Notes: generated by a model not told the origin, from the sequence alone. 30,378 bases of DNA from a candidate division TM6 bacterium GW2011_GWF2_37_49 (GCA_945861145.1 CAMATL010000013.1:1-30378); one strand, 5' to 3'; numbered from the stretch's first letter, positions 15,302-30,378 are shown. Translations and numbers: made by a program.

Positions 15302-16918
15302 TTATGACTCTAAAATTTTGAAACAACGTGCTTCATAATCCCAGATAACGATTACACGAGGAATATCAAATCTATCGTTATGCATGTCCCAATGAAGCAC
15401 CGTTGCATCGCCTTCTTCAAATAATTCTTTAGTGCCAAAATTTGTACCACGATCTTGAAACGAAAATTTTTGCGCCTTGTTAAGCCTCATCTCAAGAATG
15501 CCATCGCTCAATAATTTTGCTTGCATATGAATAGGCTCCTTATCTGGCATAAATTCAGTCCACACAAAAGCGCCCTTGTCATAATAAATTGGGGTTGTCT
15601 CTGGGAAACCATTCATGTAAAAGGCCTGTGCAACACTGGTACAAAACCAACCAAAAGGTAATCCTGCAAAGCAGATAGGTCCGGGTCTATCTTTCAATTG
15701 CACCACTAACTCTTTAACGGCAGTATTAATATTTGCAAGCACCTGCTCACGCTCATGTAGAAAAAATGGAAATACTGCGGCATTAAAAACGATAAGCCCC
15801 GCAAAGCACCAGGCTTTGGGTTTAAAAGGTAAATCATTTTCAAAAACAAGCAGAAGAATCGCTGCAACAAAAAAAAGTAGCGCTTCGTACATAAAGCGAG
15901 ACGTGTAAAATCGAATCACTGCCGGCCAAGCAAAGGCAATACTGCTCGCAAACAAAAACAGCACCATTGATTTTTTACGGCATTTAAAAAACAACCATAC
16001 TAAAAAAGCTACTACTAAAATTATCAACGATCCTTTACGTAAGCGGTTGCCACCACCTACAAATCCTAGATTGGTTAGATCAACAAGCCAAGTAACATAG
16101 TTCAAAAATTGATCTTTTAAGAAAGCAAAAAAAGCAAATCCAGGCTTAGTAACCCAGGTCAAATCGCCTTCTGATGATTTAAGAGGAAAGCGACTAACCC
16201 GCCAACCAAGATACCCAACAACAGGCACAAGCGCGCTCACGAATAGCCAAGCTTTATCTCGCACGCATCGCCAGTTCCAGATACACGCAAAGGCTACCCA
16301 TAACGGTAGTACCAGTATAGTTTCACGCGTTAAAAGAGAACAACAACTTAATACTATCATTGGCAGAAGTAGAAATTTATTACGAGATACTTCAAACCGA
16401 AGATACAACACAGCTATCAGCAGAGTGAAAAATAGTGCTAAAAGATGTTGCTGAGCCGTTGCCCACCCAAACCAATTCAACATAGATAAATGAAATAAAA
16501 AATACCCAGCACCCAGAGCGGCGACGCTTAATGAAAAATACCGCTTGAAAACAATCCACACGAGCACCGCATTTAAGCCATGCAGAAGGGATGAAACTAG
16601 TAAATAACCATAAGGAGAAAATCCAAAAAGAAGATATTGCACCCCATAAAAACCATAAAGTAATGGCCGGTACAATACAGCAAAAAATGACTGCTCCGGG
16701 GCTATATAATTAGAAGGCTGCATAAAAGTATGTAATCCAATCTCGGTAAAAAAATTACCTAACTCGCGCAAAGCTTCAATTTTACCATGCCACACAAGCC
16801 CAAAATCATCAACACCAAAACCCCATGAAAGATAGGGTAAGCCGAGAACAATTAATGCTATAGCCACTAAAAATATAGGTGCAATTTTTTGCATTTTTCT
16901 ACATTGAAGCAGTATCAT
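15302..16918 (-). CDS. GT-C fold membrane glycosyltransferase, PMT/ArnT-like (GT39/GT83-like), 538 aa
   Basis: About 11 predicted transmembrane helices and a first-loop acidic motif WGFGVDDFG, followed by a soluble C-terminal domain. AAAGGAG lies 5 nt upstream of the ATG. Paralogous to 29594..30378. Confidence 0.65.
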   Translation of the reverse strand: MILLQCRKMQKIAPIFLVAIALIVLGLPYLSWGFGVDDFGLVWHGKIEALRELGNFFTEIGLHTFMQPSNYIAPEQSFFAVLYRPLLYGFYGVQYLLFGFSPYGYLLVSSLLHGLNAVLVWIVFKRYFSLSVAALGAGYFLFHLSMLNWFGWATAQQHLLALFFTLLIAVLYLRFEVSRNKFLLLPMIVLSCCSLLTRETILVLPLWVAFACIWNWRCVRDKAWLFVSALVPVVGYLGWRVSRFPLKSSEGDLTWVTKPGFAFFAFLKDQFLNYVTWLVDLTNLGFVGGGNRLRKGSLIILVVAFLVWLFFKCRKKSMVLFLFASSIAFAWPAVIRFYTSRFMYEALLFFVAAILLLVFENDLPFKPKAWCFAGLIVFNAAVFPFFLHEREQVLANINTAVKELVVQLKDRPGPICFAGLPFGWFCTSVAQAFYMNGFPETTPIYYDKGAFVWTEFMPDKEPIHMQAKLLSDGILEMRLNKAQKFSFQDRGTNFGTKELFEEGDATVLHWDMHNDRFDIPRVIVIWDYEARCFKILES

Positions 16919-17039
16919 GCCACTCCTTTATTTAACAATAATTCGGCGCCATACCAACAGGATGCATTGCACCTTCTCCAAAAATTAGTATGCTCAGAAC
17001 GTTGCAAAGCACAAGGAAGAGTAATGAAGAGGAGAGGTA

Positions 17040-19130
17040 ATGAGAGCAATCAGTCATTGGTTTGGCACCAATAAATTACGTGCATTATTTATAAGCACGG
17101 TGTTCATTAAACTGTTTTTTATCATTTTGTTTTGTTCCGAATTTGTTCCAAAATTCTTCCTCCCCTTTGTTGACCACTTTGTTAATAACTGGGGAGATCC
17201 TTGGCAACATTTTTGGCGACAAGGCAACGGCATAGAATTTCCTTACAACCCATTGATGTTGTATATTTTGGCCATTTTTGTAAAATTCGGCCAATTACTA
17301 CATGCCCCTGTTTTTTTAACTGAAATATTGCTCAAATTACCCATTCTTGCCGCTGACTGTCTTCTTACTTATCTCATGCTGCGATCCTGTAGAGGTAAAG
17401 CGCTTGAAACACTCTTCTTTCTCTCTTTTTCACCAATATTAATCTACGCCTCGTTTATGCATACTCAACTGGATATCATTCCCACAGCATTACTGTTTTT
17501 AGCCATCTATCTGATTCGATTTCAGCCGTCACGTATCGCTGGTGGTATTTTTGGCAACACGCTTGTCGCTGGTAGTGTGTTTGGCGCCGCGCTTGCTACC
17601 AAGCTTCATGTTGCGGCTGCAGGTCCACTCCTAGCAATCTATCTTTGGAAAAATAAAGGCTGGCGCATCGGACTACTATTCACAACTATGGCCACAACCG
17701 TTTATGCCTTTTTTATAACACCTTTTTTATTCTCAGAAGGGTTTTATCGCATGGTACTTACCCATCCAAAGCAAATGATGGTATTTGATGTATTTGCTCA
17801 ACTGGGACAATTAAAAATACTCGTCCCTGTATTTTCTTTAATGGTTTTATATGGTCGTTTTTTGACCTATAAAAAAATCAACCTTGACCTACTCGAAAGC
17901 TTTTTAGCAATCACTTTTGCCACACTCGTATTTTTTATTATTCCTGCGCCAGCATGGTATGTGTGGATGCTACCATTTATTGCATTGCTTTTCATACGCA
18001 ATTACCAACAAAACAGCCTCTTAGTCTTTCTGTACCTTGCGCTCAATGTTAGTTATCTGATTTTTTTTGTTTTCTTTTATCGTGAAGCGGGCATGCAAGA
18101 TTTGCTGCTTTTCGGGCAATCACTTAACTTCAAAATCCACCATGAAAAATTAGCTAATCTTTCTTTTACCTTGCTCGAAAGTATCTTATTTCTTGTCATC
18201 TATTTTGTTTATAAAGCAGGCATCAAAAGTAATGAGCTCTACGCGCGCCAACAAAATTTGGTTATAGGCATCAGTGGAGATAGTGGCACTGGGAAGAGCA
18301 CGCTCATGAAACAATTTATCGAAATTTTTAACGTCAAGGCAACTCTTATTGAAGGTGATGGAGATCACCGATGGGAGCGAGGCGATACACATTGGCAAGA
18401 AATTACTCACCTCAATCCTAAAGCAAATTTTTTGCATCGGCAGGCAGAACACATACTGCTTTTAAAAAATCACCAACCCGCGTGGCGCACCAACTATAAT
18501 CACCACACTGGCAAATTTGATGCCCCGCAAAAAATAGAACCTACTGACTTTATTCTTCTCAGCGGCTTACACCCGCTCTACTTACCAAAGATGCGCAAAC
18601 TTATAGACGTTAAAATTTATCTTGATCCTCAAGAAAAGATCAAACGACACTGGAAAATTACACGTGATATGCGCGAACGCGGTCACAGCAAAGACCATAT
18701 CTTAGAACAAATGGACCGCCGCACAAATGACATTAAAAAATATATTGATCCTCAAAAAGAATTTGCTGACATCATAATTCATTATTTTACTACTGATGAC
18801 TTTGAAGTAGGCTTTACTCAAGCACAATTCGCAAAACAGCTCAAAATTACCTTTGATTCCAGTATTAAAATTGAGCCTCTCTTGCAAATACTTATTCAGG
18901 CCCAGGTCAATACAGAATGGAATTATGCTGATGATTTACGCACTCAGGAATTAATTTTAGATAAGCCTTTAGATGCTCAAATTTTATGCCAACTACACAC
19001 CGATTTATTACCAAATATTGAAGAGCTCTTAGCAAGCAAGCTTGAGTGGCTTGACGGATACGATGGATTTGTGCAATTTATTTGCTTAATGGTTGTTAGT
19101 GAAAAAATGAAGGAGCGTCATGCAAGCTAA
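17040..19130 (+). CDS. Fusion protein: N-terminal polytopic membrane domain (~420 aa, unknown family) + C-terminal phosphoribulokinase/uridine-kinase family P-loop kinase
   Basis: C-terminal domain carries IGISGDSGTGKSTL, YNHHTGKFD, LLSGLHPLY, DVKIYLD...WKITRDMRERGHS and YIDPQKEFADIII, which are strong PRK-family signatures. The N-terminal half is uniformly hydrophobic. Confidence 0.75.
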   Translation: MRAISHWFGTNKLRALFISTVFIKLFFIILFCSEFVPKFFLPFVDHFVNNWGDPWQHFWRQGNGIEFPYNPLMLYILAIFVKFGQLLHAPVFLTEILLKLPILAADCLLTYLMLRSCRGKALETLFFLSFSPILIYASFMHTQLDIIPTALLFLAIYLIRFQPSRIAGGIFGNTLVAGSVFGAALATKLHVAAAGPLLAIYLWKNKGWRIGLLFTTMATTVYAFFITPFLFSEGFYRMVLTHPKQMMVFDVFAQLGQLKILVPVFSLMVLYGRFLTYKKINLDLLESFLAITFATLVFFIIPAPAWYVWMLPFIALLFIRNYQQNSLLVFLYLALNVSYLIFFVFFYREAGMQDLLLFGQSLNFKIHHEKLANLSFTLLESILFLVIYFVYKAGIKSNELYARQQNLVIGISGDSGTGKSTLMKQFIEIFNVKATLIEGDGDHRWERGDTHWQEITHLNPKANFLHRQAEHILLLKNHQPAWRTNYNHHTGKFDAPQKIEPTDFILLSGLHPLYLPKMRKLIDVKIYLDPQEKIKRHWKITRDMRERGHSKDHILEQMDRRTNDIKKYIDPQKEFADIIIHYFTTDDFEVGFTQAQFAKQLKITFDSSIKIEPLLQILIQAQVNTEWNYADDLRTQELILDKPLDAQILCQLHTDLLPNIEELLASKLEWLDGYDGFVQFICLMVVSEKMKERHAS

Positions 19131-19830
19131 TCACAATCGACGCATTATTAAGGGCTTGCTTTTCGATCTTGATAACACATTGTATCATTATAATCCTGCT
19201 CATGAAGCTGGACTCAGTGCTGTTTTTAAAACACTCAGTCAACAAGTAACTCAATCTCCAGCAGAATTATCTACCGTTTACGAGCAGGCAAAGCAACAGG
19301 TTAAACACCGACTTCATAGTACCGCAGCTTCTCATCATCGACTACTATATCTTCAAGCTATGCTTGAACTGCTTGGGCTTTTCTCTCCCACCCTTACCCA
19401 AGATCTTTACAACCATTACTGGAATGCATTTTTTGCAGCCATGCAACCAATTACAGGGATGAGTGAAACCCTGCATAGATTAGCAAAAAGCTATAGTATC
19501 GGAATAGTAACTAATTTTGTTGCAGACATTCAGTATCGAAAACTTGAACAACTCGGTATTGCAAACCTCATAAGCCATCTCGTCACAAGCGAAGAAATAG
19601 GCTGCGAAAAACCTGATCCAAGAGTCTTTTTTGCCGCTTGTAAAAAAATGCAGCTACAAGCAGATGAGGTATGCATGATCGGTGACGATCTAGAGATTGA
19701 TATAATTCCTGCACAACATTTAGGCATGGAAACTTATTGGCTGGTCCCACAAACCAGTACTACAAAACAAGAGCATTCATTGTTTAAAACATGTTCGACC
19801 TTCTATGACATCGAAGAGAGATTACAATGA
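19120..19830 (+). CDS. HAD-superfamily hydrolase (subfamily IA-like phosphatase)
   Basis: Motif I FDLDNTLY, motif II IGIVTNF and motif IV GDDLEIDI. Overlaps the upstream gene by 11 bp. Confidence 0.8.
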   Translation: MQANHNRRIIKGLLFDLDNTLYHYNPAHEAGLSAVFKTLSQQVTQSPAELSTVYEQAKQQVKHRLHSTAASHHRLLYLQAMLELLGLFSPTLTQDLYNHYWNAFFAAMQPITGMSETLHRLAKSYSIGIVTNFVADIQYRKLEQLGIANLISHLVTSEEIGCEKPDPRVFFAACKKMQLQADEVCMIGDDLEIDIIPAQHLGMETYWLVPQTSTTKQEHSLFKTCSTFYDIEERLQ

Positions 19831-20924
19831 CAACAATCTTAGACCTTATTGAACTTTCAAAATGGGCCGGCCAACGCTTTGACCTCGTGCAAGCTGGCGG
19901 GGGTAACTCATCATTTAAAACTGATGATAACCAAATGTTTATTAAAGCATCTGGCATTAGTTTAAGCGAAGTAAGCACATCAAATGGTTTTGTTACCGTT
20001 GATTTAGTCCCCTTGCGCAAAGGGCTTACAAAGCTACACAAACAACAAGAAACCCTTGATAAAAAAGCGCTCGAAGCTGCTGCAGAAGAACTTCTAGCTA
20101 AAGTAAAAACAGCAACCAACGTCGCTCGCCCATCAATCGAGACCTTTTTACATGCTTATCTTGAGACCTATGCTATGCACACTCACGGCATTGTAGTTAA
20201 CACAATTGCTTGTCGTAAAAATTGGCGCGAAACTTTTGAGCAAATTTTCCCCGAGAGCCTCTGTGTTTCCTATAAAACACCAGGCATTGAGCTCGCGCTT
20301 GAACTCGACCTACAAGTCAGCGCCTACATCAAAGAAAAAGGCAAGAAACCAAGTATTATTTTTTTACAAAATCACGGGCTCATTGTCAGCGCACCAACAG
20401 CGGCTGAAGTTAAATTTTTGACCGAAGAAGTTACGATTAAACTCGAACAATTTCTTAATATCACCAACAATACGTACCGCTTAACATCAGTGATTTCGGA
20501 AAACATACACAACGTATTTGGCGCCAGCAAGGTTTCCTACCTTTCTAACGACGCAGGCCTACGCGAGCTAATTATTAATGCAAAGCCTTTATTTTTCCAA
20601 CGACCATTTACCCCTGACACACTCGTGTATTGCGGCGTGCGCCTGCTCGTCCTCAATGATTTTGACGATGCAGACACACTAACTAAATATAAAGAAAATT
20701 TCACAGAAATTCCTCGTGTTATTATTTGCCGCGATCTGATATTTTTCATTGCAGATTCAGTACGCAAAGCACGCGAGATCGAAGAAGTACTGAAATTTCA
20801 CCTTGCAGTACTTGTGATTAATGTCACCCAAAATATTCAACCACAAGACATTCAATTCTTGGAAGAAGAAGAGCTTAATTATTTAGCCAAATGGGATGCT
20901 GAAAAGTACCGTCAGGCAGTTTAA
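19827..20924 (+). CDS. Class II aldolase/adducin-family domain protein (ribulose-5-P 4-epimerase / MtnB-dehydratase-like N-terminal domain) + C-terminal domain of unknown function
   Basis: AGGGNSSFK (substrate-phosphate-binding GN-S motif), the HTHG metal-ligand pair and the NHGLIVSA motif. ATGA overlap with the HAD gene. Confidence 0.65.
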   Translation: MTTILDLIELSKWAGQRFDLVQAGGGNSSFKTDDNQMFIKASGISLSEVSTSNGFVTVDLVPLRKGLTKLHKQQETLDKKALEAAAEELLAKVKTATNVARPSIETFLHAYLETYAMHTHGIVVNTIACRKNWRETFEQIFPESLCVSYKTPGIELALELDLQVSAYIKEKGKKPSIIFLQNHGLIVSAPTAAEVKFLTEEVTIKLEQFLNITNNTYRLTSVISENIHNVFGASKVSYLSNDAGLRELIINAKPLFFQRPFTPDTLVYCGVRLLVLNDFDDADTLTKYKENFTEIPRVIICRDLIFFIADSVRKAREIEEVLKFHLAVLVINVTQNIQPQDIQFLEEEELNYLAKWDAEKYRQAV

Positions 20925-20987: not shown

Positions 20988-22697
20988 ATGCACATCATTA
21001 TCCCAATGTCTGGCGTAGGCGCACGATTTCAAGCCGCAGGATACAAAGACCCCAAGCCTCTTATCTTGGTAGATGGCAAACCAATTATTGAGCATGTGGT
21101 TAATCTTTTTCCAGGCGAAACAAAATTCACCTTCATCTGCAATGAAGAGCATTTACAAACCACCGCAATGCGTGAAATCTTACAACGCATTGCTCCCTTA
21201 AGCTCCATTGCAAGCATCCCTCCACACAAGTTAGGCCCCGTATTTGCAACACTGCAAATGCAAGATTTAATCGATGACCAAGAAGAAGTAATCGTTAATT
21301 ATTGCGATTTTGGCACCTACTGGGATTACCAAGATTTTTTAAGCCACACGCGCAATCGCGCCGCCGCCGGAGCTATTCCAGCCTATCGAGGTTTTCATCC
21401 CCACATGCTTGGTACCACTAACTACGCATTTATTAAAGATTCAAATCAATGGCTAGAAGCCATTAAAGAAAAAGAACCTTGGACCAATAATCGCCTGCAA
21501 GAATATGCCTCCAATGGCACCTATTATTTCGCACGCGGCAGCTACGTAAAAAAATATTTTGAACAGGCAATCAAGCGCAATTTAAGCATCCCCGGTGCGA
21601 CCGGTGCGAATGGCGAATTTTATGTAAGCCTTGTGTACAACCTCATGGTTGAAGACAAATTACCAGTCTCAATCTACGAAATTCAGCATATGCTGCAGTG
21701 GGGAACCCCGCAAGATTTACGCGAATACGAAGCCTGGTCTGGCTATTTTCGCCAGCTTGTGGAAAAACCAAGCATCTCTCAATCTGTTGAACAGCGGAGC
21801 GTTAACCTTATCCCGCTCGCAGGGCGCGGCAAACGATTTGCTGACGAAGGCTACACTACACCAAAGCCTTTAATTCCAGTCAGCGGTAAGCCCATGATTG
21901 TACAAGCAGCGGCAGCACTGCCACGAGCAGAACAGCAAATATTTGTGTGTTTACAAGATCATTTAAATACCGCCCCGCTTAAACAAGCACTTAAGCAGGC
22001 CTACCCTCATGCATCGGTGATTGGTATCAATGCCGTCACAGAAGGGCAAGCTTGTACGTGCGCCATTGGATTGAATAATGTTGCCCCTGAAGCACCTGTT
22101 ACTATTGGCGCTTGTGACAACAGCATGCTTTTCGATAGAAAAAAGTATGAGGCTTTGCGCGATCGCGCTGATGTCGATGCCATCATATGGACATTTAAAA
22201 ATCATCCTTCTGCAAAAACTAATCCACAAATGTACGGGTGGGTTATCACTGATGATCAAAATAAGGCCGTAGGCGTTTCAGTAAAAAAAGCAATCTCATC
22301 TACGCCTGAAAAAGACCATGCCATTGTTGGTGCTTTTTATTTTAAAAAAGCAGCTCATTTCACGGCAGGACTTGAATCACTCTATAAAAACAATATTCGC
22401 ATAAATAATGAATTTTATGTCGACAGCCTCTGCGGAGAGCTGATCAAACTCGGGCTCAATGTTTATGTCTTTGAAGTTGATTTTTATGTGTGCTGGGGAA
22501 TCCCAAACGATTTACGCACCTTCAATTACTGGCAAAGCTTTTTCCATAAGTGTTCATGGCACCCCTACTCAATCAGCAAGGATCATATGGTTGCAGCTGA
22601 GGCTCAACAAAAGCTCATTGAGGAAGCAACAACATTTGCACAATCATGTGACTCTTTTTATAGTTCGCAATCAAACGATTTAGCAAAAACGATTTAG
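20988..22697 (+). CDS. Protein with two tandem sugar-phosphate nucleotidyltransferase (NTP_transferase/GxGxR-type) domains
   Basis: Each half begins with the nucleotidyltransferase signature: IIPMSGVGARF...PKPLILVDGKPIIEHV and LIPLAGRGKRF...PKPLIPVSGKPMIVQA. Confidence 0.7.
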   Translation: MHIIIPMSGVGARFQAAGYKDPKPLILVDGKPIIEHVVNLFPGETKFTFICNEEHLQTTAMREILQRIAPLSSIASIPPHKLGPVFATLQMQDLIDDQEEVIVNYCDFGTYWDYQDFLSHTRNRAAAGAIPAYRGFHPHMLGTTNYAFIKDSNQWLEAIKEKEPWTNNRLQEYASNGTYYFARGSYVKKYFEQAIKRNLSIPGATGANGEFYVSLVYNLMVEDKLPVSIYEIQHMLQWGTPQDLREYEAWSGYFRQLVEKPSISQSVEQRSVNLIPLAGRGKRFADEGYTTPKPLIPVSGKPMIVQAAAALPRAEQQIFVCLQDHLNTAPLKQALKQAYPHASVIGINAVTEGQACTCAIGLNNVAPEAPVTIGACDNSMLFDRKKYEALRDRADVDAIIWTFKNHPSAKTNPQMYGWVITDDQNKAVGVSVKKAISSTPEKDHAIVGAFYFKKAAHFTAGLESLYKNNIRINNEFYVDSLCGELIKLGLNVYVFEVDFYVCWGIPNDLRTFNYWQSFFHKCSWHPYSISKDHMVAAEAQQKLIEEATTFAQSCDSFYSSQSNDLAKTI

Positions 22698-22756
22698 CCG
22701 CTACCAAGACAGCTTGAATATTTAAACCTACCTGCACTCAAAAGCCCTGGCAATTC

Positions 22757-22785
22757 TTGACAACAGCTATAAACCCGCGCTAAAT
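22757..22785 (+). promoter_or_regulatory. Sigma70-type promoter of cassette copy 1 (TTGACA, 17-bp spacer, CTAAAT); 48-nt leader conserved with copy 2
   Basis: ttgacaacagctataaacccgcgctaaat. Paralogous block at 25674..25702. Confidence 0.55.
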
Positions 22786-22833
22786 TTCGCCCAGTTAGTC
22801 ATTTATTGCTGATTCCTATTTGAAAGGGCTATC

Positions 22834-23199: not shown

Positions 23200-23237
23200 T
23201 TTGAAAATTAATTATAAATCGAAGAAAGGGGAGTGTA

Positions 23238-23759
23238 ATGAATGTTTATCAAATTATGTTTATTAGCATACTTGTAGTATCAACACCGCTGATTGCATGG
23301 GACAACAAGGATGTCAATCAAGAATTAGAAATTTCTTGCAATGCTGATTTAACTTCACTTCTCAATGAAAACATCTCCAAATTCACTGTCATGGCTGTTA
23401 AAGCTAACTCGGTGGTAGTTTTTTTTGATGAAAAATTCAATGGCAACCCAGAATTAATTTGTACAAACTGCAGCAGAAGACTTTCTTATGCTGAATTTTT
23501 TGGTGTTATTGGAGCCATGACACTACAAAAAGTGCTAACAAGTAGCGATAAGTTTGAAGTTGTCATCTCTTTTTTTGACTCATTTACTAAGTTACTTGAA
23601 GCAGAAAATTTGGCCGTAATTGCAGCTTTCATGCTGGAATCAATTAAAAAAAAAGATGATCTGAGGAGCTATCCATGCCCAGATTGCAAGAAAAGTAACT
23701 CATGGATTTATGCCCCATATGAATCAGAAGTCAACGCAAAAATCAAAGCCCAGGCATAA
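23238..23759 (+). CDS. Secreted CxxC...CPDC protein; family B, copy 1, distantly related to family A
   Basis: Signal peptide MNVYQIMFISILVVSTPLIA. Core CTNCSRRLSYAEFFG...YPCPDCKKSNSW. RBS aaaggggag. Paralogous to 26134..26670. Confidence 0.6.
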   Translation: MNVYQIMFISILVVSTPLIAWDNKDVNQELEISCNADLTSLLNENISKFTVMAVKANSVVVFFDEKFNGNPELICTNCSRRLSYAEFFGVIGAMTLQKVLTSSDKFEVVISFFDSFTKLLEAENLAVIAAFMLESIKKKDDLRSYPCPDCKKSNSWIYAPYESEVNAKIKAQA

Positions 23760-23787
23760 CTGCTAAAAAAATCTACCACTCACTTTG

Positions 23788-24023
23788 TTGAAGTTGATTT
23801 TTATGTGTGTTGGGGAATCCCAAACGATTTACGCACATTCAATTACTGGCAAAGCTTTTTCCATAAATGTTCATGGCACCCCTACTCAATCAACAAGGAT
23901 GATATGATTGCAGCTGAGGCTCAACAAAAGCTCATTGAGGAAGCAACAACATTTGCACAATCATGTGACTCTTTTTTTACTTCTCAGTTGAGTAAAAAAA
24001 AGGTGACTGAATTATGCAAATAA
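23788..24023 (+). pseudogene. Duplicated 3' fragment of the nucleotidyltransferase gene (~97% identity to 22471..22659). It has no ATG (the listed ORF 23805..24023 starts at a GTG) and preserves a different, probably ancestral, C-terminus overlapping the GNAT start
   Basis: 6 mismatches over about 190 bp against 22471..22659. Homology fades over the next ~13 bp in both copies. In-frame remnant reads ...VCWGIPNDLRTFNYWQSFFHKCSWHPYSI... Confidence 0.75.
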
Positions 24024-24514
24024 GATCACTAACTCAAAAAGATTGGTTAATTTGGAAGAAAATTCGATTAGAAGCTCTAAAAGATTCGCCCGAAAATTTT
24101 GGATCCGCTCATGAAGAAGAATCAAATTGGAAAGGTTCAGATTTTCGAAATAGCTTACAAAAAAACAATATCTTTGGAGCCTTCATTAACCATGAACTTA
24201 TAGCTTGCGCTGGATTTTATAAAATGAATTCACTCAAAACAAAACATCGAGGTGTTATTTGGGGGGTATATACACAGCCTGAACACAGATTGAAAGGCGC
24301 ATCCAACAGCTTAATTGAAGCTATTATTATTCATGCCAAAGAACATGTAATACAAATACATTTAACTTGTGTAACAACAAATCTTGGCGCAATTAAGCTT
24401 TATCAAAAACATGGTTTTTTAATTTATGGAACTGAACCTCGCTCGCTCAAAATTGATGATATATTTTTTGACGAACACTTGATGATTTTTGTATTTAACA
24501 AAGATTCGCAATAA
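24014..24514 (+). CDS. GNAT-family N-acetyltransferase
   Basis: Acetyl-CoA-binding motif HRLKGASNSLIEAII in a 166-aa protein. RBS aaggtga upstream. Confidence 0.75.
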   Translation: MQIRSLTQKDWLIWKKIRLEALKDSPENFGSAHEEESNWKGSDFRNSLQKNNIFGAFINHELIACAGFYKMNSLKTKHRGVIWGVYTQPEHRLKGASNSLIEAIIIHAKEHVIQIHLTCVTTNLGAIKLYQKHGFLIYGTEPRSLKIDDIFFDEHLMIFVFNKDSQ

Positions 24515-24708: not shown

Positions 24709-25599
24709 TCATCCCTCGCGCTTGTAATCGGCAAGTACTTCATCAATAACTCGCCAAGATTTTTCTATCTCAAGGCTATTGGTGCCAGGCAGTGCAGCAC
24801 ATACGATTAAAGCCTTCCACAGGGCCCATCCTCGCCCACGCGCCCAAGTGGCACTATCGAGTGGCAGTGCTGCTCGAAATACATCTCGGCTCTCCCCTTT
24901 GAATAATGTCCAAGCAATCACCAAATCACAAGCAGGGTCGCCGACACCAGAACAACCAAAATCAATGACGGCGCTCAACGCGCCATTTTCAACTAATAGA
25001 TTCCCGACAGCAACATCCCCGTGAAACCAGACAGGAAAGCCTTGCCAGGAGGACTCAAGAGCTTTATCCCATACGGCAGTGACCGCGGCAACATCAATCG
25101 CATCGGCAAGAATCGCGAGCGATTGTCTTATTTCAGCATCATAAATTAACAGTGGCCCGCCACAGCGAGAAAAATTATGTGGTCCTCCGGTAGAGTCGAT
25201 TCGCTGCAGAGCAACTAAAAATTCGGCCAAGGCGGTGGCAAATTGCCACAGGTCAGCAATCCGCTCGATCGACACCGTTTCGCCATCAAGCCACTTATAA
25301 ATAGACCAATGCCATGGATACCCTTGGGCAGGCTTACCCATAGCCAAAGGAACAGGAATCGGGAGAGGCAGAAGTGGAGCCAATTTTGGCAACCAACAAT
25401 GTTCTTTTTCCACCGACGAAACATACTCCTCAGCACTCGGTAGCCGAACTGTCATCTGCTCACCGAGATGAAAAGTTCTGTTGTCCCATCCGCCAAACTC
25501 AACCGGCTTAACCGGAAGGTCAGCCCATTGCGGAAATTGCACGGCAACAAGGCGGCGAACAAGAGCGGCATCAATATGAATTTTGTCTGTGTTTGGCAT
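24709..25599 (-). CDS. APH-fold small-molecule kinase (aminoglycoside/choline/sugar phosphotransferase family), compositionally foreign
   Basis: Contains the catalytic HGDVAVGNLLV and IDFGCSGVGDPACDL motifs. Sampled stretches are 48-57% GC against about 36-40% for neighbouring genes. Amino-acid composition is Ala/Leu/Trp/Gly-rich, typical of a high-GC donor. Confidence 0.75.
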   Translation of the reverse strand: MPNTDKIHIDAALVRRLVAVQFPQWADLPVKPVEFGGWDNRTFHLGEQMTVRLPSAEEYVSSVEKEHCWLPKLAPLLPLPIPVPLAMGKPAQGYPWHWSIYKWLDGETVSIERIADLWQFATALAEFLVALQRIDSTGGPHNFSRCGGPLLIYDAEIRQSLAILADAIDVAAVTAVWDKALESSWQGFPVWFHGDVAVGNLLVENGALSAVIDFGCSGVGDPACDLVIAWTLFKGESRDVFRAALPLDSATWARGRGWALWKALIVCAALPGTNSLEIEKSWRVIDEVLADYKREG

Positions 25600-25750: not shown

Positions 25751-26095
25751 ATGGATTTACGAATACGATGTAATAATTGTGAGCGAGAAATGCACTTTTT
25801 TGAATTTATGGGGTATGCAGAAGTGTATTTGGTGACTGCTATTGGAGCAGTTTTAGCACCTTTTGCACTAAAAAAACTCGTTGATTATCTTGCAACACCA
25901 ATAACTACACCTCCAACAAAGGGGCTAATTGATATGCCAATGGCCACATTCGCTCGTCAATTTTTTATTAAATGCCCAGATTGTGGTGAATGTTTTTGGC
26001 AACCAGCTTCTGAACCTAAAACAACTACAATATTTCTGAAAAAAAAGGCCACACCAAAAAGTACCAAAAAGAAGGAAGTTACCACTTCAGTTTAA
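25751..26095 (+). CDS. Small cytoplasmic CxxC...CPDC protein with Lys/Ser/Thr-rich tail; family A, copy 2
   Basis: MDLRIRCNNCEREMHFFEFMGYA...IKCPDCGECFW...KKKATPKSTKKKEVTTSV. About 45% identical to 22834..23199. Confidence 0.6.
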   Translation: MDLRIRCNNCEREMHFFEFMGYAEVYLVTAIGAVLAPFALKKLVDYLATPITTPPTKGLIDMPMATFARQFFIKCPDCGECFWQPASEPKTTTIFLKKKATPKSTKKKEVTTSV

Positions 26096-26133
26096 TTTTA
26101 AAATTAATTAAAAATCGGAGAAAGGAGGATGTA

Positions 26134-26670
26134 ATGAAGCTCTTTAAAATCATATTCTTTATCTTGCTCATGATACCATCATCATCATCAGCAGGATCGG
26201 CTAAAAACACAACCTCCAAGAAACCGTTGGTTTATTCCGCAGAGAAAACACCACCCATCTTCCATAGCAACACCTTCAGCTATCTTGCTATGATTCTAAC
26301 AATGGCCCAAATTACAACTCCTTACATAGAAAAACACGGCGTCCACCCTAGATTAACATGCACAGGCTGTGACAAAATGCTTTCACACATGGAGTTTTTT
26401 ACTGAAGCACAAAGTACGATTTTACTTAAAATAATGTTAGGCACTGATGAAATCGAGATCTTTAAGTCTTTTATAAATAAATTTGCTGAATTACTCATAG
26501 CAGAAAATTACGATGCAATCGCAGCATTCATGATAGAATCACTTCAAAATAAAGATATTATCTCTCGGCCTTGCCCAAGCTGTAATAAAAATGCCTGGGT
26601 TTATAAGCCTGGCGATTTAAATCCAGGTACCAATACAAAAGACCATCCTATTCAACATACTGCCACATAA
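26134..26670 (+). CDS. Secreted CxxC...CPSC protein; family B, copy 2
   Basis: Signal peptide MKLFKIIFFILLMIPSSSSA. Core CTGCDKMLSHMEFF...AENYDAIAAFMIESL...RPCPSCNKNAW. About 45% identical to 23238..23759 over the core. Confidence 0.6.
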   Translation: MKLFKIIFFILLMIPSSSSAGSAKNTTSKKPLVYSAEKTPPIFHSNTFSYLAMILTMAQITTPYIEKHGVHPRLTCTGCDKMLSHMEFFTEAQSTILLKIMLGTDEIEIFKSFINKFAELLIAENYDAIAAFMIESLQNKDIISRPCPSCNKNAWVYKPGDLNPGTNTKDHPIQHTAT

Positions 26671-26676
26671 AAAAAT

Positions 26677-27396
26677 TTATCGCTCATTCTGCTGCGGCAA
26701 TTTTTTACGCAAGCTAGCCGAATAGCTCATCGTCCTCGCAATTAATTTCCAGCGAGCTTTTAAGCCTGAATTCCATGAAGATGAGCCGAATTGGCGAGGC
26801 CCAAATGAGACTTGAAAACGAATCAATTTAAGACCAAGCTTTTTTGCCATGTAACAGGCGTACAAATCAAGCGAAAAATCATGTGGCGGGTTTTTCCACT
26901 GCTCAAAAAAACTACGATGAAATATATTTGGCTGGGCATTTATATCCCAGAGAGGCGTCTGCAAATACAGTGTTTCAAACGCGCTCATACCCACGGTAAA
27001 AAACTGATCAAAAATAGGCCGCCCCGCGCGAGCGCCCTTCACAAATAATTTTTCAGATACTGAGCTTTTAGCGATAATGTCATACGCACGAACCACGTCT
27101 CTTGGATCTGCTTGCAGGTCTGCATGCGTCCAACCAAGCAGCTCTCCCGTTGCCACACGCAGCCCACTCAAAATTCCAAAACCGTAACCCTGATTTTTTT
27201 CAACGCGAGTAGTTTTTGCAAACTCGTAACGAGGAAGTAAAGCGGCAAGCACTGCGGCAGTCTCATCAAACGAACCATTATCTACAAGCATCACTTCAAT
27301 ATCTCGATCACCAATAACATCGGCAAAACGATCAAGTAAAAAGGGGATACTTTTTGATTCATTGTAACAAGGCACAATAATTGATAACTTCTTCAT
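26677..27396 (-). CDS. GT2-family glycosyltransferase (dolichyl/polyprenyl-phosphate sugar synthase-like), soluble form
   Basis: LSIIVPCYNE...VMLVDNGSFD...(DxD region) GWTHADLQADP, the N-terminal GT-A fold signatures. GGGAG RBS upstream. Confidence 0.75.
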   Translation of the reverse strand: MKKLSIIVPCYNESKSIPFLLDRFADVIGDRDIEVMLVDNGSFDETAAVLAALLPRYEFAKTTRVEKNQGYGFGILSGLRVATGELLGWTHADLQADPRDVVRAYDIIAKSSVSEKLFVKGARAGRPIFDQFFTVGMSAFETLYLQTPLWDINAQPNIFHRSFFEQWKNPPHDFSLDLYACYMAKKLGLKLIRFQVSFGPRQFGSSSWNSGLKARWKLIARTMSYSASLRKKLPQQNER

Positions 27397-27432
27397 TTAC
27401 TCTACTCCCATTCCCTTTGCAAGGATGCACAC

Positions 27433-28488
27433 ATGCACACAACGACTGTTAAAAAAACATTACTCAAAGCTTGGCTTACATTCTCAGATTTTTTCTACAA
27501 AACAGTTGAAGCGCTGCCTTCAACTGTTTTTTCGCTGGTAGCAACACTACCAATCCTTATTTTCTGGTTATTGATGGTGTATAAAAAACCGATTAACCAC
27601 TTGCCAGCAATTTTTTATCAAGATCAACTAATACAAACGGCTAGCTCGTGGTTCAACCTACCACAAGATCCTACCTCACTGCCAGCAAGTTTTTTGATTT
27701 TTGGGTTACACACAATCAACATCAGTCTTTTTCTATATCTAGCACGCCCCTACCTTTCCAAATTAATGTTGCTCTGGGCGTGCTGGTATATTGGCATCCA
27801 CCCCAGTCATCAATTATGGCTCGGCAAGCTTGAATATTTACCCTACCTGCTTGAATGCATGATGGTCTTGATTACAATCATTTCGATAAAAAAAACCTCC
27901 GCTACAAATGCAATACCACTCAAACGTTTTTTCATTATAGCTCTTATGTTGGGCCTCTGGTTACCCATCAATATCTGGTTTGGCGCTGCATGCGCCACGT
28001 TGGCTGCTGCTTATTTTTGGCCTCTACCGACAACGCAACTAACAATACTTATGAGCAGCTACGCAATTGCACAACTTATTACAATCGTGCAAGGCTTTAC
28101 TATCAATGCAACAGCAATTTTTTTAAACTTACGGCAGACCTTGGTAGCCCTTTTTGGCCTAGGCTGGATTCCAAGCTCTCAACAATGGCTACGTTACTGT
28201 TTTCTTATTTTTTGGGCAGCAAGCTTAATTGGTCTTTTCCTACATACAACTAAGCGTCGCCAAGCAGGACTACTCTTGCTAGCCATTACTGCATACCTAG
28301 TACCGCAAATTTTCATAAAAATGCATCCTGCGTATGTCTACATAGCACTGCCAGCATTCATTACCTCACTTGGTCTGCTTTATGAAAACACGGGCGAAGC
28401 TGATATGCGCAGCGTTATAAAAAGCCTTATCATCCCAATCTACGCCTCTTTTTTATTTAACGTAGTCATGATTTTATTTTGGGCGTAG
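27433..28488 (+). CDS. Polytopic integral membrane protein (351 aa), unknown family; candidate flippase or GT-C-type partner
   Basis: Hydrophobic throughout (about 9-10 helices). AAGGA upstream. Start codon is only 36 bp from the divergent GT2 start. Confidence 0.5.
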   Translation: MHTTTVKKTLLKAWLTFSDFFYKTVEALPSTVFSLVATLPILIFWLLMVYKKPINHLPAIFYQDQLIQTASSWFNLPQDPTSLPASFLIFGLHTINISLFLYLARPYLSKLMLLWACWYIGIHPSHQLWLGKLEYLPYLLECMMVLITIISIKKTSATNAIPLKRFFIIALMLGLWLPINIWFGAACATLAAAYFWPLPTTQLTILMSSYAIAQLITIVQGFTINATAIFLNLRQTLVALFGLGWIPSSQQWLRYCFLIFWAASLIGLFLHTTKRRQAGLLLLAITAYLVPQIFIKMHPAYVYIALPAFITSLGLLYENTGEADMRSVIKSLIIPIYASFLFNVVMILFWA

Positions 28489-28626: not shown

Positions 28627-29613
28627 ATGAAGACACCACTTCTTTCTGTGGTCATTCCCCTGCTTAATGAAGAAAAGAATCTGCTTCCTTTATACGGTGA
28701 GCTCTCAACAACCACCAAACAGTTGGAGCATTTTAAACATTACGAATTCATTTTTGTTAACGATGGTAGCTGCGACAATTCATTAGATGTTCTAAAAAAA
28801 CTCGCAACGGCTGATGACCGGGTTAAGATCATCTCATTTATAAGAAATTTTGGTCACGAAAATGCCACGTATGCCGGCATACATCATGCCAAAGGTGATG
28901 CGGTTGTTTTAATTGATGCGGACCGCCAAGACCCTGCGGATCTAATTATTGAATTTGAAAAACATTACATAGAAGGCTATGACATTGTTTTTGGTCAACG
29001 CACAAAACGCCTGAACGAATCTTGGTTAAAAAAATGCACTTCTACCCTTTTCTACCCACTCTTTAAAAAATTAACAAAAGTTGATATGCCCTCAAATACA
29101 GGTGATTTTTGCTTGCTAAGCCGTAAGGCAGTAACAACCTTCAAGCTCTTACCAGAAAACCAAGTATTTGTGCGCGGCCTTATTTATTGGTCAGGACTCC
29201 CCAAAAAAGCAGTCCCTTTCGTACGGCGTAGCCGTGCCAGCGGTACATCAAAATACAACTACACAAAACTTACAATCTTTGCCCTAGAAAATATTATTTC
29301 ATTTTCTACCGTTCCAATGTATGCACTTGTATTTGGATCTCTTGGCCTTATAGCTTTATGCAGTCTTGGTGGGCTCATCGCCTTAGTTATGAAAATACTG
29401 GGACTAGTTGTTATGACAGGGTGGACTTCTTTGATGTTGGCACTACTCTTTTTATTTGCCTGCAATTTTTTTGCACTGGGAATTTTAGGCATCTACATCA
29501 GCAAAATCTTCCAGGAATTAAAACAACGGCCAATGTTTGTGGTAAGTGAGCTCATCGGCATTGAAGCAAATACAACTGCCATAGGAGCGAATTATGCTTA
29601 CCTTAAAAAATAA
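28627..29613 (+). CDS. GT2-family polyprenyl-phosphate glycosyltransferase with two C-terminal TM helices (ArnC/GtrB/DPM1-like)
   Basis: LSVVIPLLNEE...FIFVNDGSCD...VLIDADRQDP, plus the C-terminal hydrophobic pair YALVFGSLGLIALCSLGGLIALV / TSLMLALLFLFACNFFALGILGIYI. Confidence 0.8.
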   Translation: MKTPLLSVVIPLLNEEKNLLPLYGELSTTTKQLEHFKHYEFIFVNDGSCDNSLDVLKKLATADDRVKIISFIRNFGHENATYAGIHHAKGDAVVLIDADRQDPADLIIEFEKHYIEGYDIVFGQRTKRLNESWLKKCTSTLFYPLFKKLTKVDMPSNTGDFCLLSRKAVTTFKLLPENQVFVRGLIYWSGLPKKAVPFVRRSRASGTSKYNYTKLTIFALENIISFSTVPMYALVFGSLGLIALCSLGGLIALVMKILGLVVMTGWTSLMLALLFLFACNFFALGILGIYISKIFQELKQRPMFVVSELIGIEANTTAIGANYAYLKK

Positions 29614-30378
29614 CCTACAAACACGTCTCTTTGTTGCAGCCAGTATTGCTATCAGTATTATTTGCATACTTGGTCTACCATTCACAAAATGGGGCTTTAA
29701 AACGGACGATTGGGCAAATATTTTACACAGCCAATTATCATCATGTAATGATGTTAAAACCTTGTTTACAGAAGGCAATATGGAAAGTATTAATCACCCA
29801 TCAAATATGGATACTGATACTGGATCATTCTTACAAGGCTTGTACCGCCCCATGTCTTTTATTTTTTATTACCCACAAACATTACTTTTTGGCACACAAG
29901 CTTACGGCTATTTTTTGGTTACCGTAGCAATACACGCCCTTAATGCTGGGTTATTTTTCTTAATCCTCAGTAGTTTTTTTAGCATCGGCGCATCATTTTT
30001 AGCAGCCCTTTTTTTTGGTTTTCACCCAAGCCTGCAAAACTGGTTAGGATGGATCAGCGCTCAAACTTACTTTATTGAGCTACTGCTTTTAGGATGTATT
30101 TTTGTCTCTTTTTATCAGTGGCTACAAACTCGGCACATGAGATGGTACACACTTTCAATAACATTATTTTTCATAAATTTATTACTCAAGGAAGCGACAA
30201 TCATTCTTCCTGCATGGATTTTTCTTGCTACCCTGATGTACACAAAAACAACTTTAAAAACTTGCTGGCTCGCTTTTAAAAACTCACTAGGCTTCATTGC
30301 AGTAGCCGGTGCATACTGCCTCTGCAGACTCTATTCCATGCCCTTTAGTAGCAGCAATACAACAACGCTTGGCTTTGC
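29594..30378 (+). CDS. Second GT-C (PMT/ArnT-like) membrane glycosyltransferase, paralog of 15302..16918; 3' end beyond the window, so absent from the ORF track
   Basis: Hand-translated: 261 codons with no stop. LGLPFTKWGFKTDDWANILH, LYRPMSF, GYFLVTVAIHALNAG, LQNWLGWISAQ and LLKEATIILPAWIF align with LGLPYLSWGFGVDDFGLVWH, LYRPLLY, GYLLVSSLLHGLNAV, LNWFGWATAQ and LLTRETILVLPLWV of the other gene. Overlaps the GT2 stop by 20 bp. Confidence 0.7.
   Translation, partial: MLTLKNNLQTRLFVAASIAISIICILGLPFTKWGFKTDDWANILHSQLSSCNDVKTLFTEGNMESINHPSNMDTDTGSFLQGLYRPMSFIFYYPQTLLFGTQAYGYFLVTVAIHALNAGLFFLILSSFFSIGASFLAALFFGFHPSLQNWLGWISAQTYFIELLLLGCIFVSFYQWLQTRHMRWYTLSITLFFINLLLKEATIILPAWIFLATLMYTKTTLKTCWLAFKNSLGFIAVAGAYCLCRLYSMPFSSSNTTTLGF

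Follow-up and report, generated by a model that had tools for sequence, protein, structure and literature searches.

The region from 15302 to 30378 in a 30,378-nucleotide stretch of DNA (hereafter the window, at its full length) from a Dependentiae bacterium (candidate division TM6 bacterium GW2011_GWF2_37_49) holds two different sugar-decoration systems together with lineage-specific passengers, and is not one duplicated island. We consider it fairly likely that both serve extracytoplasmic glycosylation and that their sugars are delivered directly from polyprenyl phosphate. A first-pass annotation of this DNA had described a single glycosylation island with duplicated components; each of the components it listed is present as an intact open reading frame at its coordinates (the contig end cuts the last gene), and its lipid-carrier logic of a GT2 plus a GT-C enzyme is retained here, while the duplicated island is replaced by two unrelated systems. 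No tRNA was found in the window, and the base composition of 15302–30378 is the same as that of the remainder, so that “island” is only a descriptive term. The 15 kb are moreover modular, since in one relative the right-hand block (the APH-fold kinase, a CxxC pair, the short GT2 and the 351-aa protein) is located at another genomic site, despite a fusion protein that is 91% identical to the copy in the window.

A phosphoribulokinase-fold domain fused to a GT-C fold, and its partner enzymes

The core of system 1 is an operon (17040–20924, plus strand) encoding a kinase, a HAD phosphatase and an aldolase-fold enzyme, with overlapping stop and start codons. The kinase noted in the first-pass annotation is indeed present, but it makes up only the C-terminal part of a 696-aa fusion protein, and the N-terminal domain of about 400 aa (17040..18236) had been overlooked. 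This domain has about 12 TM helices and the polytopic membrane fold of solved GT-C enzymes, and is ALG3/PIG-M/PimE-like. The distribution of K and R residues, from which the loop orientation was deduced, suggests an N-in/C-in topology, which would place the loop following TM1 on the extracytoplasmic side; in 39 of 40 sequences this first loop carries a D or E immediately before an invariant FPY. That the membrane domain is no transferase, and is instead an anchor, a sensor of lipid-carrier status regulating the kinase, or a flippase, with all transfers left to variable polytopic proteins, appears rather unlikely to us. Large additional polytopic proteins, highly variable, are found beside the cassette in 59 of 80 loci, so that a conserved fusion GT-C domain and variable extra GT-C candidates coexist.

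The C-terminal domain (18237..19130, plus strand) has the complete fold of a class II phosphoribulokinase (PRK; plant/cyanobacterial/archaeal type) and the signature motifs. It scores 206.4 bits against the NCBIfam PRK profile (cutoff 236), covering profile positions 6–192 of 326, and true PRKs match it about 30 orders of magnitude better than uridine kinases, over the whole PRK fold of about 300 aa and with the sugar-phosphate-binding motifs aligned. The HAD-IA phosphatase that follows (236 aa, 19120..19830, plus strand; Pfam HAD_2, 2e-26) overlaps the end of the fusion gene by 11 nt and conserves the DxD, T/S, K and GD..D motifs. Its best NCBIfam match is ribulose-1,5-bisphosphate (RuBP) 5-phosphatase, with 166.3 bits against a cutoff of 330, which does not reach the equivalog level for the haloarchaeal enzyme (NF053830); the PRK and HAD matches are thus both below their NCBIfam equivalog cutoffs. 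One could suppose that the lipid-carrier scheme is right but that the kinase substrate is not ribulose-5-phosphate, the product being another activated sugar (hexose, heptose or deoxy sugar). We regard this as unlikely, given the breadth and the margin of the PRK match and the fact that the best match of the HAD independently indicates RuBP.

The third gene (365 aa, 19827..20924, plus strand; Pfam Aldolase_II, 7e-16) starts within the stop of the HAD gene and encodes a class II aldolase-fold enzyme with a C-terminal extension of about 150 aa, whose closest NCBIfam families are rhamnulose-1-P aldolase N-domains. Conservation of E105, H118, H120 and H183 reaches at least 95% among 71 homologs, and these residues form the pattern of a catalytic Glu and three Zn-binding His that characterises the class II aldolase/epimerase/dehydratase superfamily; we take them to correspond to E73, H92, H94 and H155 of FucA. 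Downstream lies a tandem sugar-phosphate nucleotidyltransferase (569 aa, 20988..22697, plus strand), matched by Pfam NTP_transf_3 and NTP_transferase in two stretches. GxGxR(F) and the Lys are kept in both halves, which occur as separate genes in viral contigs, and the protein is 58–60% identical across phyla.

The candidate polyprenyl-phosphate glycosyltransferase of system 1, judged by sequence, is a short soluble GT2 (239 aa, 26677..27396, minus strand; Pfam GT2, 2e-18) that carries no TM segment and lies 4 kb from the operon on the opposite strand. Its best PDB relatives are ArnC (7e-11) and the dolichol-P-mannose synthase DPMS (1.5e-8), and it shares 58–62% identity with the GT2 encoded after GtrA in the Flavobacterium, Paenibacillus and Oceanidesulfovibrio cassettes. 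The aldolase-like, HAD, nucleotidyltransferase and GT2 proteins retain their catalytic residues, in the window's copies as well.

Distribution of the cassette and a possible route to an activated sugar

Relatives of the fusion number 291 among 185,579 species genomes, and the full-length protein (37–50% identity) is present in all 80 retrieved cassette loci. It co-occurs there with the aldolase-like gene (72/80), the HAD (67/80), the tandem nucleotidyltransferase (62/80), the short GT2 (60/80), a PLC/GDPD-like phosphodiesterase (59/80) and GtrA (about 30/80), many of the absences being due to contig ends. The gene order is usually fixed, extends over more than ten phyla, and the same gene set appears in the PGAP annotation of an E. 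coli plasmid (NZ_CP145712.1). Phage and giant-virus contigs contain PRK-like, aldolase-like and one or two nucleotidyltransferase genes without any GT2 or GT-C, the HAD and PLC/GDPD-like genes being sometimes present and sometimes missing; such a set of soluble enzymes fits a nucleotide-sugar module. We found no paper describing this cassette, which is widespread yet unstudied.

The Dependentiae copies do not have the GtrA and PLC/GDPD-like genes conserved elsewhere. No GtrA was detected in the window by tblastn with queries from two cassette loci (L003 and L004), nor was PF04138 among the scanned open reading frames. The short GT2 adjoins GtrA in other genomes, and in a close relative it is not adjacent to the operon. 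Taken together, this means that the local pathway may be incomplete or may be completed from elsewhere in the genome.

We propose with moderate confidence that system 1 leads from ribulose-5-phosphate via RuBP to a nucleotide sugar and then to a polyprenyl-phosphate sugar, as part of the two-system scheme. At the cytoplasmic face of the membrane, the fusion's PRK domain would convert ribulose-5-phosphate to RuBP, and the HAD phosphatase would then strip the 5-phosphate to give ribulose-1-phosphate, so that the phosphate is shifted to the other end of the sugar. The aldolase-fold enzyme would remodel this ketopentose-1-phosphate, the simplest option being a retro-aldol/aldol epimerisation, and the two-domain nucleotidyltransferase would yield a nucleotide-activated sugar, with the PLC/GDPD-like phosphodiesterase added at this step in most other genomes; the folds, motifs, paralogy, gene fusion, operon overlaps and co-occurrence across phyla are observed, and we infer the substrates, the sugar, its acceptors and the order of these last three steps. 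The short GT2 would place the sugar on polyprenyl phosphate, and after flipping (by GtrA elsewhere) the fusion's GT-C domain, the neighbouring PMT_2-like GT-C protein or both would transfer the sugar to a surface glycan or another acceptor. In nucleotide-heptose biosynthesis, a kinase, the HAD phosphatase GmhB and a nucleotidyltransferase act such that one end of the sugar is phosphorylated, the original phosphate removed and the product nucleotidylated. System 1 may use the same tactic, by analogy, in swapping the phosphate between sugar ends before nucleotidylation. The heptose kinases are however of the GHMP or ribokinase type rather than PRKs, system 1 has no GmhA isomerase, and it has additional parts: an aldolase-fold enzyme, one more nucleotidyltransferase domain and, in other genomes, a phosphodiesterase.

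Alternatively, the three enzymes of the operon (kinase, HAD phosphatase and aldolase-fold enzyme) could form a catabolic shunt, in which ribulose-5-P is phosphorylated to RuBP, dephosphorylated to ribulose-1-P and cleaved into DHAP and glycolaldehyde, and which neighbours glycosylation genes by chance. The family of the best HAD match and the retained catalytic residues of the aldolase-fold enzyme would suit such a shunt, and exactly this enzyme pair is found in a haloarchaeal pathway (PMC9700705). We nevertheless hold it to be very improbable: the kinase is fused to a GT-C domain in 80 of 80 loci, the three genes stand in a fixed arrangement with those for the tandem nucleotidyltransferase, the short GT2 and GtrA in more than ten phyla and on plasmids, and nucleotidyltransferases accompany the kinase and aldolase genes in viruses. 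There is also no evident gain in spending ATP on RuBP merely to cleave it, and the window encodes neither R15P isomerase nor glycolaldehyde reductase.

Returning to the biosynthetic reading, one point weighs against it: the phosphate of ribulose-1-phosphate is on a non-anomeric carbon, so that a simple NDP-sugar made from it would be no glycosyl donor. The fusion of a Calvin-cycle-type kinase to a membrane transferase suggests that an activated sugar is made by a route not yet described, and we tentatively put forward, as a possibility that is well short of probable, that the PRK-fused cassette and its soluble viral version represent such a route, with RuBP as an intermediate of glycan synthesis. 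Kinase and phosphatase together would move the phosphate (C5 to C1), and the aldolase-fold enzyme would fix the stereochemistry. The PLC/GDPD-like enzyme and both nucleotidyltransferase domains would make a genuine glycosyl donor from the ketopentose phosphate, possibly through a 1,2-cyclic phosphate that relocates the phosphate to the anomeric C2. If so, RuBP would have a role in glycan synthesis, and not in carbon fixation or nucleoside catabolism, and the route could supply the donor long sought for ketopentofuranoses, among them xylulofuranose, whose biosynthesis genes are unknown in E. coli O95/O97 and chloroviruses (PMC7685785, PMC9614988).

Relation to known glycosylation systems

The proposed scheme, in which a GT2 loads the sugar onto polyprenyl phosphate, a small flippase carries it across and a variable GT-C enzyme attaches it outside, follows the logic of the three-component Gtr systems of O-antigen glucosylation (GtrA flippase, GtrB polyprenyl-phosphate glucosyltransferase and a serotype-specific GT-C) and of their Gram-positive counterpart CsbB/GtcA/YfhO. 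The 328-aa GT2 of the window matches GtrB over its full length, and the pairing of conserved donor-side genes with variable transferases in the cassette loci is reminiscent of the serotype-specific transferases. The window does however not contain GtrA, and the GT2 of system 1 is short and soluble, unlike GtrB with its TM helices. Gtr systems use UDP-glucose, whereas system 1 encodes a dedicated set of five or six enzymes for sugar activation and a kinase-fused GT-C domain. As for ArnC/ArnT, the combination of an ArnC-like GT2 with a GT-C is similar, and ArnT is among the fold matches. Among solved structures, ArnC comes first for the short GT2 and second for the long one; but the long GT2 is much nearer to GtrB than to ArnC and the GT-C proteins are not specifically ArnT-like. 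Neither a formyltransferase/decarboxylase, an aminotransferase nor a deformylase of the ArnA/ArnB/ArnD types was found by Pfam and NCBIfam in all open reading frames of 15302–30378, and a Pfam scan of the same region gave no MIR domain. The membership in arn, gtr or pmt loci that had been envisaged is therefore not borne out, as GtrA, the Ara4N genes and the MIR domain are all missing from the region.

Pentose-phosphate-derived sugars are also placed on polyprenyl phosphate and added outside by a GT-C enzyme in the mycobacterial decaprenyl-phospho-arabinose pathway and in the PRPP-dependent pentofuranose systems, the latter consisting of a polyprenyl phosphoribose synthase, a MATE flippase and a GT136 GT-C (Kelly et al. 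2024, PMC11127046). They further resemble the cassette in involving a phosphatase of the HAD type and, as proposed here, a step of epimerisation. The cassette differs in that its entry is via a PRK-type kinase and its activation via nucleotidyltransferases and a GT2, without UbiA-type synthase, PRPP, MATE or DprE1/E2; UbiA-type synthase and MATE flippase domains gave no match in any open reading frame of the region in the Pfam and NCBIfam scans. The haloarchaeal RuBP phosphatase shares an operon with a class II aldolase whose substrate is ribulose-1-phosphate (PMC9700705). This non-carboxylating pentose bisphosphate pathway resembles system 1 in its operon of HAD and class II aldolase-fold genes and in RuBP as the implied intermediate, but here a PRK would supply RuBP instead of ribose-1,5-bisphosphate isomerase, the HAD score does not reach the family cutoff, and the context is biosynthetic (nucleotidyltransferase, GT2, GT-C) where the haloarchaeal one is catabolic.

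System 2, the GT-C paralogs and the passengers

System 2 begins with a GtrB-type polyprenyl-phosphate glycosyltransferase (328 aa, 28627..29613, plus strand). In phmmer it matches Synechocystis GtrB (5EKP) over its full length (E 1.7e-71, residues 5–313) and ArnC with E 3.5e-34, it scores 231 bits against NCBIfam PgfS (positions 3–304 of 308), and it has the two C-terminal hydrophobic TM segments of the GtrB type at 223–295. Both GT2s are thus relatives of GtrB, ArnC or dolichol-P-mannose synthase, and not the capsule enzymes without lipid-P linkage that the first-pass annotation had allowed for. The next gene, for a PMT_2-like GT-C protein (29594..30378, plus strand), overlaps the GtrB-type gene by 20 nt at its start, so that the two are translationally coupled, and is truncated by the contig end. 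Its product is 100% identical to the first 261 aa of a 602-aa protein in the sister genome L088, where two more paralogs (542 aa and at least 293 aa) follow. From these similarities, system 2 is read as a classical GtrB-type GT2 heading an array of PMT_2-like GT-C proteins; the former would make a second polyprenyl-phosphate sugar and the several paralogs would use it.

At the other end of the region, a 538-aa protein (15302..16918, minus strand) is encoded divergently from the fusion operon. The two bracketing proteins are genuine paralogs, 33% identical over 230 aa with E 6e-37, and as GT-C-like proteins they are not the unrelated transporters that had been considered. Their distant homologs are PMT_2+TPR proteins, some with a precomputed PF13231 match. 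The Pfam PMT_2 match of the 538-aa protein (E 1e-3, 19.6 bits) is below the cutoff of 26.1 bits and the cut-off paralog has none, which does not qualify either as a PMT (GT39) enzyme. The paralogs share an invariant DD directly after TM1 (D37-D38). The 538-aa protein also has YRP, H113 and H143, and the top 21 PDB matches of its model in Foldseek are all GT-C enzymes (PglB, STT3, ArnT, AftA, ALG9), with E values of 4e-4 to 0.1 for a model of only moderate quality (pLDDT 67). It is accordingly a candidate GT-C enzyme on this predicted structure. The position and orientation of its gene beside the fusion are the same in L006, L007 and L008, and it is probably the acceptor-specific transferase of system 1. 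Between the two GT2s lies the gene for a 351-aa polytopic membrane protein (27433..28488, plus strand) of an orphan family with only 2 clusters in 1.84 billion representatives, which is always divergent from the short GT2 in relatives. It contains a GT-C (PMT_2) core motif, with an hhalign probability of 94% (E 1e-7) to the GT-C paralog family over 71 columns that cover H..N...HPS..W.G, and is possibly a transferase or a flippase substitute.

Two pairs of CxxC proteins share a CxxC...EF...CPxC pattern in all four members. Pair 1 (22834–23199, 121 aa, and 23238–23759, 173 aa; plus strand; no Pfam match) is within a 1.1-kb insertion (22670..23787), and pair 2 (25751–26095, 114 aa, and 26134–26670, 178 aa; plus strand, together 25751..26670) belongs to the same lineage-specific four-Cys family. 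The insertion is missing in L088, which aligns with 96.5–97% identity on both sides, and is flanked by a 96% direct repeat of the 3′ end of the nucleotidyltransferase gene (22600–22669 and 23917–23986); the sequence comparison thus marks pair 1 as a recent insertion. All four had been described as secreted, which agrees with the N-terminal signal or anchor of the 173-aa protein and the signal peptide-like N-terminus of the 178-aa protein, but not with the 121-aa and 114-aa forms, which have no such hydrophobic N-terminus. With 8 members among 5.8 billion proteins the family is tiny; it is missing from all 80 cassette loci elsewhere, and with one pair recent and two forms without export signal, the proposed role of these proteins as acceptors is left unsupported.

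This bears on the view of a single 15-kb island in which all components are duplicated for two donors or acceptors and the CxxC proteins are glycosylated. Two GT2s, at least two GT-C paralogs and two CxxC gene pairs would speak for it, as would the CxxC pair kept beside the short GT2 in relatives and the C-terminal CxxC tails rich in Ser, Thr, Pro and Lys. Yet the GT2s differ in type (about 26% identity at the N-terminus only, one being soluble and the other GtrB-like), the sugar-synthesis genes are single copy, and the Ser/Thr-rich tails sit on the forms without export signals; conserved synteny says little about a functional link when the relatives are this close, and the recent arrival of pair 1 and the restricted range of the family point the same way. 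We therefore consider this view highly unlikely and retain two distinct systems with passengers. A GNAT acetyltransferase (166 aa, 24014..24514, plus strand; Pfam Acetyltransf_1, 4e-16) is such a passenger or an accessory gene outside the conserved cassette, being present in L088 and in none of the 80 cassette loci. The APH-fold kinase (296 aa, 24709..25599, minus strand; Pfam APH, 9e-41) matches resistance APH/Mph families weakly, and adjoins the CxxC pair in the relatives L086, L087 and L088.

Gene content and two proposed glycosylation systems

The window makes up the final 30.4 kb of a metagenomic contig of 40 kb (ENA ERZ27280245). Its nearest named relatives are Candidatus Dependentiae/Babeliales, and the genes listed by the first-pass annotation are all present as intact open reading frames where it had placed them. 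Pfam and NCBIfam profiles place a PRK/uridine-kinase domain at residues 408-587 of the 696-aa product of 17040-19130. They further identify a phosphatase of the HAD type at 19120-19830, a protein with a class II aldolase fold at 19827-20924 and, at 20988-22697, a nucleotidyltransferase with two domains, together with a GNAT, an APH-fold kinase (24709-25599) and two GT2 glycosyltransferases, one short (239 aa, 26677-27396, minus strand) and one long (328 aa, 28627-29613). Stop and start codons overlap at three junctions: from the gene for the 696-aa fusion to that for the HAD, from the HAD gene to the one for the aldolase-like protein, and from the long GT2 to the final ORF, a truncated GT-C paralog. 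These gene sets therefore form operons. The principle proposed previously, a lipid-carrier GT2 working with a GT-C transferase, is retained, but the structure read into the region, one system in duplicate, is replaced by two distinct systems: a cassette built on the fusion of a PRK-like kinase with a GT-C domain (system 1), and a GtrB-type set which is no copy of it (system 2). Neither is, strictly speaking, a member of the arn, gtr or pmt systems. A horizontally acquired island was also considered and rejected, as the region has neither a tRNA nor an integrase and its composition shows no break.

Full-length similarity to Synechocystis GtrB (E 1.7e-71) and two TM segments at the C terminus characterise the long GT2. 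In the sister genome GCA_945869805.1 (L088), whose DNA is 96.5-97% identical to the window, the truncated GT-C paralog is 602 aa long and is the first of three consecutive PMT_2-like paralogs that follow the GtrB-type GT2 in a stretch continuing past the window end (L088:13455-17787); the other two have 542 and at least 293 aa. In system 2, a donor enzyme of the classical GtrB type serves several GT-C transferases.

The truncated ORF (at 29594) and the 538-aa protein at the other end of the region (15302-16918, minus strand) are paralogs, with 33% identity (E 6e-37). Relatives of the 538-aa protein are very few, and the distant ones are PMT_2 proteins with TPR tails; the alignment of this family contains an invariant DD right behind TM helix 1, as well as YRP and two histidines. 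Its AlphaFold model is of moderate quality (pLDDT 67), and the first 21 PDB matches of this model are all GT-C structures (PglB, STT3, ArnT, AftA and ALG9; E 4e-4 to 0.1). Comparing a profile of the GT-C alignment A2 with the PDB was uninformative for the membrane domain, the results being dominated by the TPR repeats of the distant homologs. We accept the two bracketing proteins as members of the PMT_2/ArnT-like class of GT-C-type transferases. They are not PMT proper, as the Pfam score is below the cutoff and they have no MIR domain. Counting the three L088 paralogs, the 538-aa gene, a 351-aa relative and the fusion, at least six GT-C-type genes are found within approximately 20 kb of this small-genome intracellular bacterium. 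If the inference holds, the presence of five or more such genes in one neighbourhood points to an elaborately decorated Dependentiae surface.

The fusion protein and its cassette in other genomes

At the sequence level, the kinase domain of the fusion is closer to cyanobacterial PRK (E 2e-41) than to uridine kinase (1.5e-11), and the PRK motifs are all aligned (P-loop, DH..R, LDP(K/R)AN, YxHxTG, GLHP and WKIxRDxxERGHS). The fusion is predicted to have around 12 TM helices with both its N and C ends inside, judging from the AF2 helices and the short loops rich in K/R (a crude hydropathy script gave overlapping segments), which would place the kinase in the cytoplasm. The motifs conserved in the membrane domain, which are an acidic residue before an invariant FPY, NPW, HSQLDxIPT and STKLHV, are predicted to lie in outward-facing loops, as in active GT-C enzymes. 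Scanning one genome per species returned 291 relatives of the fusion, and full-length versions with about 40-45% identity are found in Flavobacterium, Paenibacillus, Oceanidesulfovibrio, Poseidonibacter, Omnitrophota, Nitrospirota and Melainabacteria. Two copies occur in some Melainabacteria (L012 and L017 in one Obscuribacterales MAG, L011 and L020 in another), one within a full cassette and the other alone beside a 579-aa polytopic protein.

The neighbours of the fusion in three genomes inspected gene by gene are a HAD, an aldolase-like protein, a tandem nucleotidyltransferase, GtrA, a short GT2, a conserved protein of about 196 aa and a large polytopic protein. The window proteins are 40-41% (HAD), 39-43% (aldolase-like), 58-60% (tandem nucleotidyltransferase) and 58-62% (239-aa GT2) identical to these. 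Accordingly, the short GT2 gene, located 4 kb from the kinase operon and on the opposite strand, belongs with it. Among 80 cassette loci retrieved from other genomes, where gene order is mostly constant and contig ends account for many absences, the fusion is found beside the aldolase-like gene in 72, the HAD in 67, the tandem nucleotidyltransferase in 62, the short GT2 in 60, the ~196-aa protein in 59 and GtrA in about 30. The ~196-aa protein has no Pfam or PDB sequence match, and is described as PLC/GDPD-like on account of its H-R...E-x-D...H-D motif and of its PGAP name in an E. coli plasmid (PI-PLC/glycerophosphodiester phosphodiesterase family member).

One to three extra large polytopic ORFs flank the cassette in 59 of the 80 loci. 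They fall into 44 sequence clusters, the 538-aa protein of the window grouping with its counterparts in three loci (L006-L008). None of the ten extra proteins compared with Pfam had a significant family; one of them gave a sub-threshold match to DUF6159. Their variability resembles that of the acceptor-specific transferases of gtr systems, and they are candidate GT-C proteins.

The whole cassette adjoins IS26 on the E. coli IncR plasmid NZ_CP145712.1 (L090, 6022-14984), from a human stool isolate, with genes for the tandem NTP-transferase, GtrA, GT2, the PI-PLC/GDPD-like protein, the fusion (as “uridine kinase”), HAD, class II aldolase and a hypothetical protein of 586 aa; a frog isolate has an identical copy. 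This plasmid-borne version would be tractable for experiments. The cassette was also considered as the source of xylulofuranose in E. coli O95/O97, but it is present in only two of 5,426 E. coli genomes, both times on plasmids, which leaves no link as far as DNA similarity can be detected.

Proposed sugar-activation pathway

The top family match of the HAD, below the cutoff, is the haloarchaeal RuBP 5-phosphatase, which yields ribulose-1-phosphate and whose gene shares an operon with one for a class II aldolase that acts on this compound (PMC9700705). The aldolase-fold protein of the window retains the Glu and three His that an active metal enzyme should have, the GxGxR signatures are intact in both halves of the nucleotidyltransferase, and the best solved relatives of the short GT2 are ArnC and dolichol-phosphate mannose synthase. 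The PRK and HAD assignments, the haloarchaeal precedent and the intact motifs together lead us to propose a route from ribulose-5-phosphate. The PRK domain would convert it to ribulose-1,5-bisphosphate (RuBP) and the HAD would produce ribulose-1-phosphate, which would be turned into a remodelled ketopentose phosphate and then a nucleotide sugar; the short GT2 would transfer the sugar to polyprenyl phosphate, and the GT-C domain would transfer it outside. Ribulose-1-phosphate would not yet be a true glycosyl donor because its phosphate is off the anomeric carbon, and one may speculate that this step is bridged by the phosphodiesterase-like protein together with the second domain of the nucleotidyltransferase.

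The strongest indication that the soluble enzymes jointly make a nucleotide-activated sugar comes from viruses, as no GT2 or GT-C was found in the phage, IMG/VR and giant-virus loci examined. Synechococcus phages S-SM2 (L091) and Bellamy have the tandem nucleotidyltransferase (42-44% identity), adjoined in S-SM2 by a class II aldolase gene. The IMG/VR contigs (L092-L107) contain a stand-alone PRK-like kinase beside genes for an aldolase-like protein and a nucleotidyltransferase, whose two NTP halves are separate genes in some contigs. This set includes three giant-virus MAGs (L093, L099 and L100), two of which (L093 and L100) also have HAD and PLC/GDPD-like genes. The nucleotide sugar would be used by ordinary transferases in viruses, while in bacteria it would be routed via the lipid carrier.

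Literature searches returned only related systems and no description of the fusion or its pathway. The cassette is a new form of the three-component glycosylation theme, and its sugar-activation pathway is probably new. Should the inference be right, a kinase of the Calvin-cycle type has been recruited to begin surface-sugar synthesis, in a module common to cyanophages, giant viruses, E. coli plasmids and more than 10 phyla of bacteria. The nucleotide-sugar pathway would then be new, as would the GT-C family with its unusual architecture, carrying the cytoplasmic first and the extracytoplasmic last step on one polypeptide, and would provide a testable candidate for the entry of ketopentose or other pentose residues into glycans.

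Local layout in Dependentiae and the CxxC proteins

Dependentiae are obligate intracellular bacteria of protists. The window and all Dependentiae loci fetched lack both GtrA and the PLC/GDPD-like gene. In a relative with a 91% identical fusion protein (L002), the five-gene core (GT-C, fusion, HAD, aldolase-like and nucleotidyltransferase) is still beside hisS and murE, and a block comprising the APH kinase, the CxxC pair, the short GT2 and the 351-aa membrane protein is on a separate contig. Downstream of the nucleotidyltransferase, a NAGPA-family phosphodiester glycosidase (L002:16477-17655) replaces the CxxC/GNAT/APH block, and the slot upstream of hisS is occupied by a 537-aa leucine-rich-repeat protein, unlike in the window. 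The 351-aa family has only two other clusters among 1.84 billion representatives, and has an H..N...HPS..W.G core in common with the GT-C paralogs (hhalign probability 94%, E 1e-7). In three related genomes, the APH-fold kinase adjoins the CxxC pair and the short GT2. Its fold takes in anomeric sugar kinases, and this enzyme might feed one of the glycosylation systems instead of conferring antibiotic resistance.

The four CxxC proteins have CxxC...EF...CPxC in common, with an N-terminal hydrophobic signal in the 173-aa and 178-aa forms only. Pair 1 sits on a 1.1-kb insertion that is missing from L088 and has on either side a direct repeat (96% identity) of the 3' end of the nucleotidyltransferase gene (22600-22669 and 23917-23986). 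The two CxxC units are 73-80% identical in DNA, which indicates that the insert derives from a diverged copy. The first-pass annotation put these proteins forward as candidate acceptors. This is not retained, given that pair 1 is inserted and that the family is tiny and lineage-specific (eight members in 5.8 billion proteins, all from close relatives) and absent from all 80 of the other cassette loci. A functional link to the short GT2 is possible, since the pair stays beside it in relatives.

Elsewhere in the window, overlapping nucleotidyltransferase (Polbeta/NTP_transf_2) and HEPN genes (5963-6686) have the typical layout of a HEPN/MNT toxin-antitoxin system. A VanX-type D-Ala-D-Ala dipeptidase (Peptidase_M15, 9675-10514) is located close to a MurE-type ligase (13840-15297), indicating that this bacterium retains peptidoglycan-related genes.
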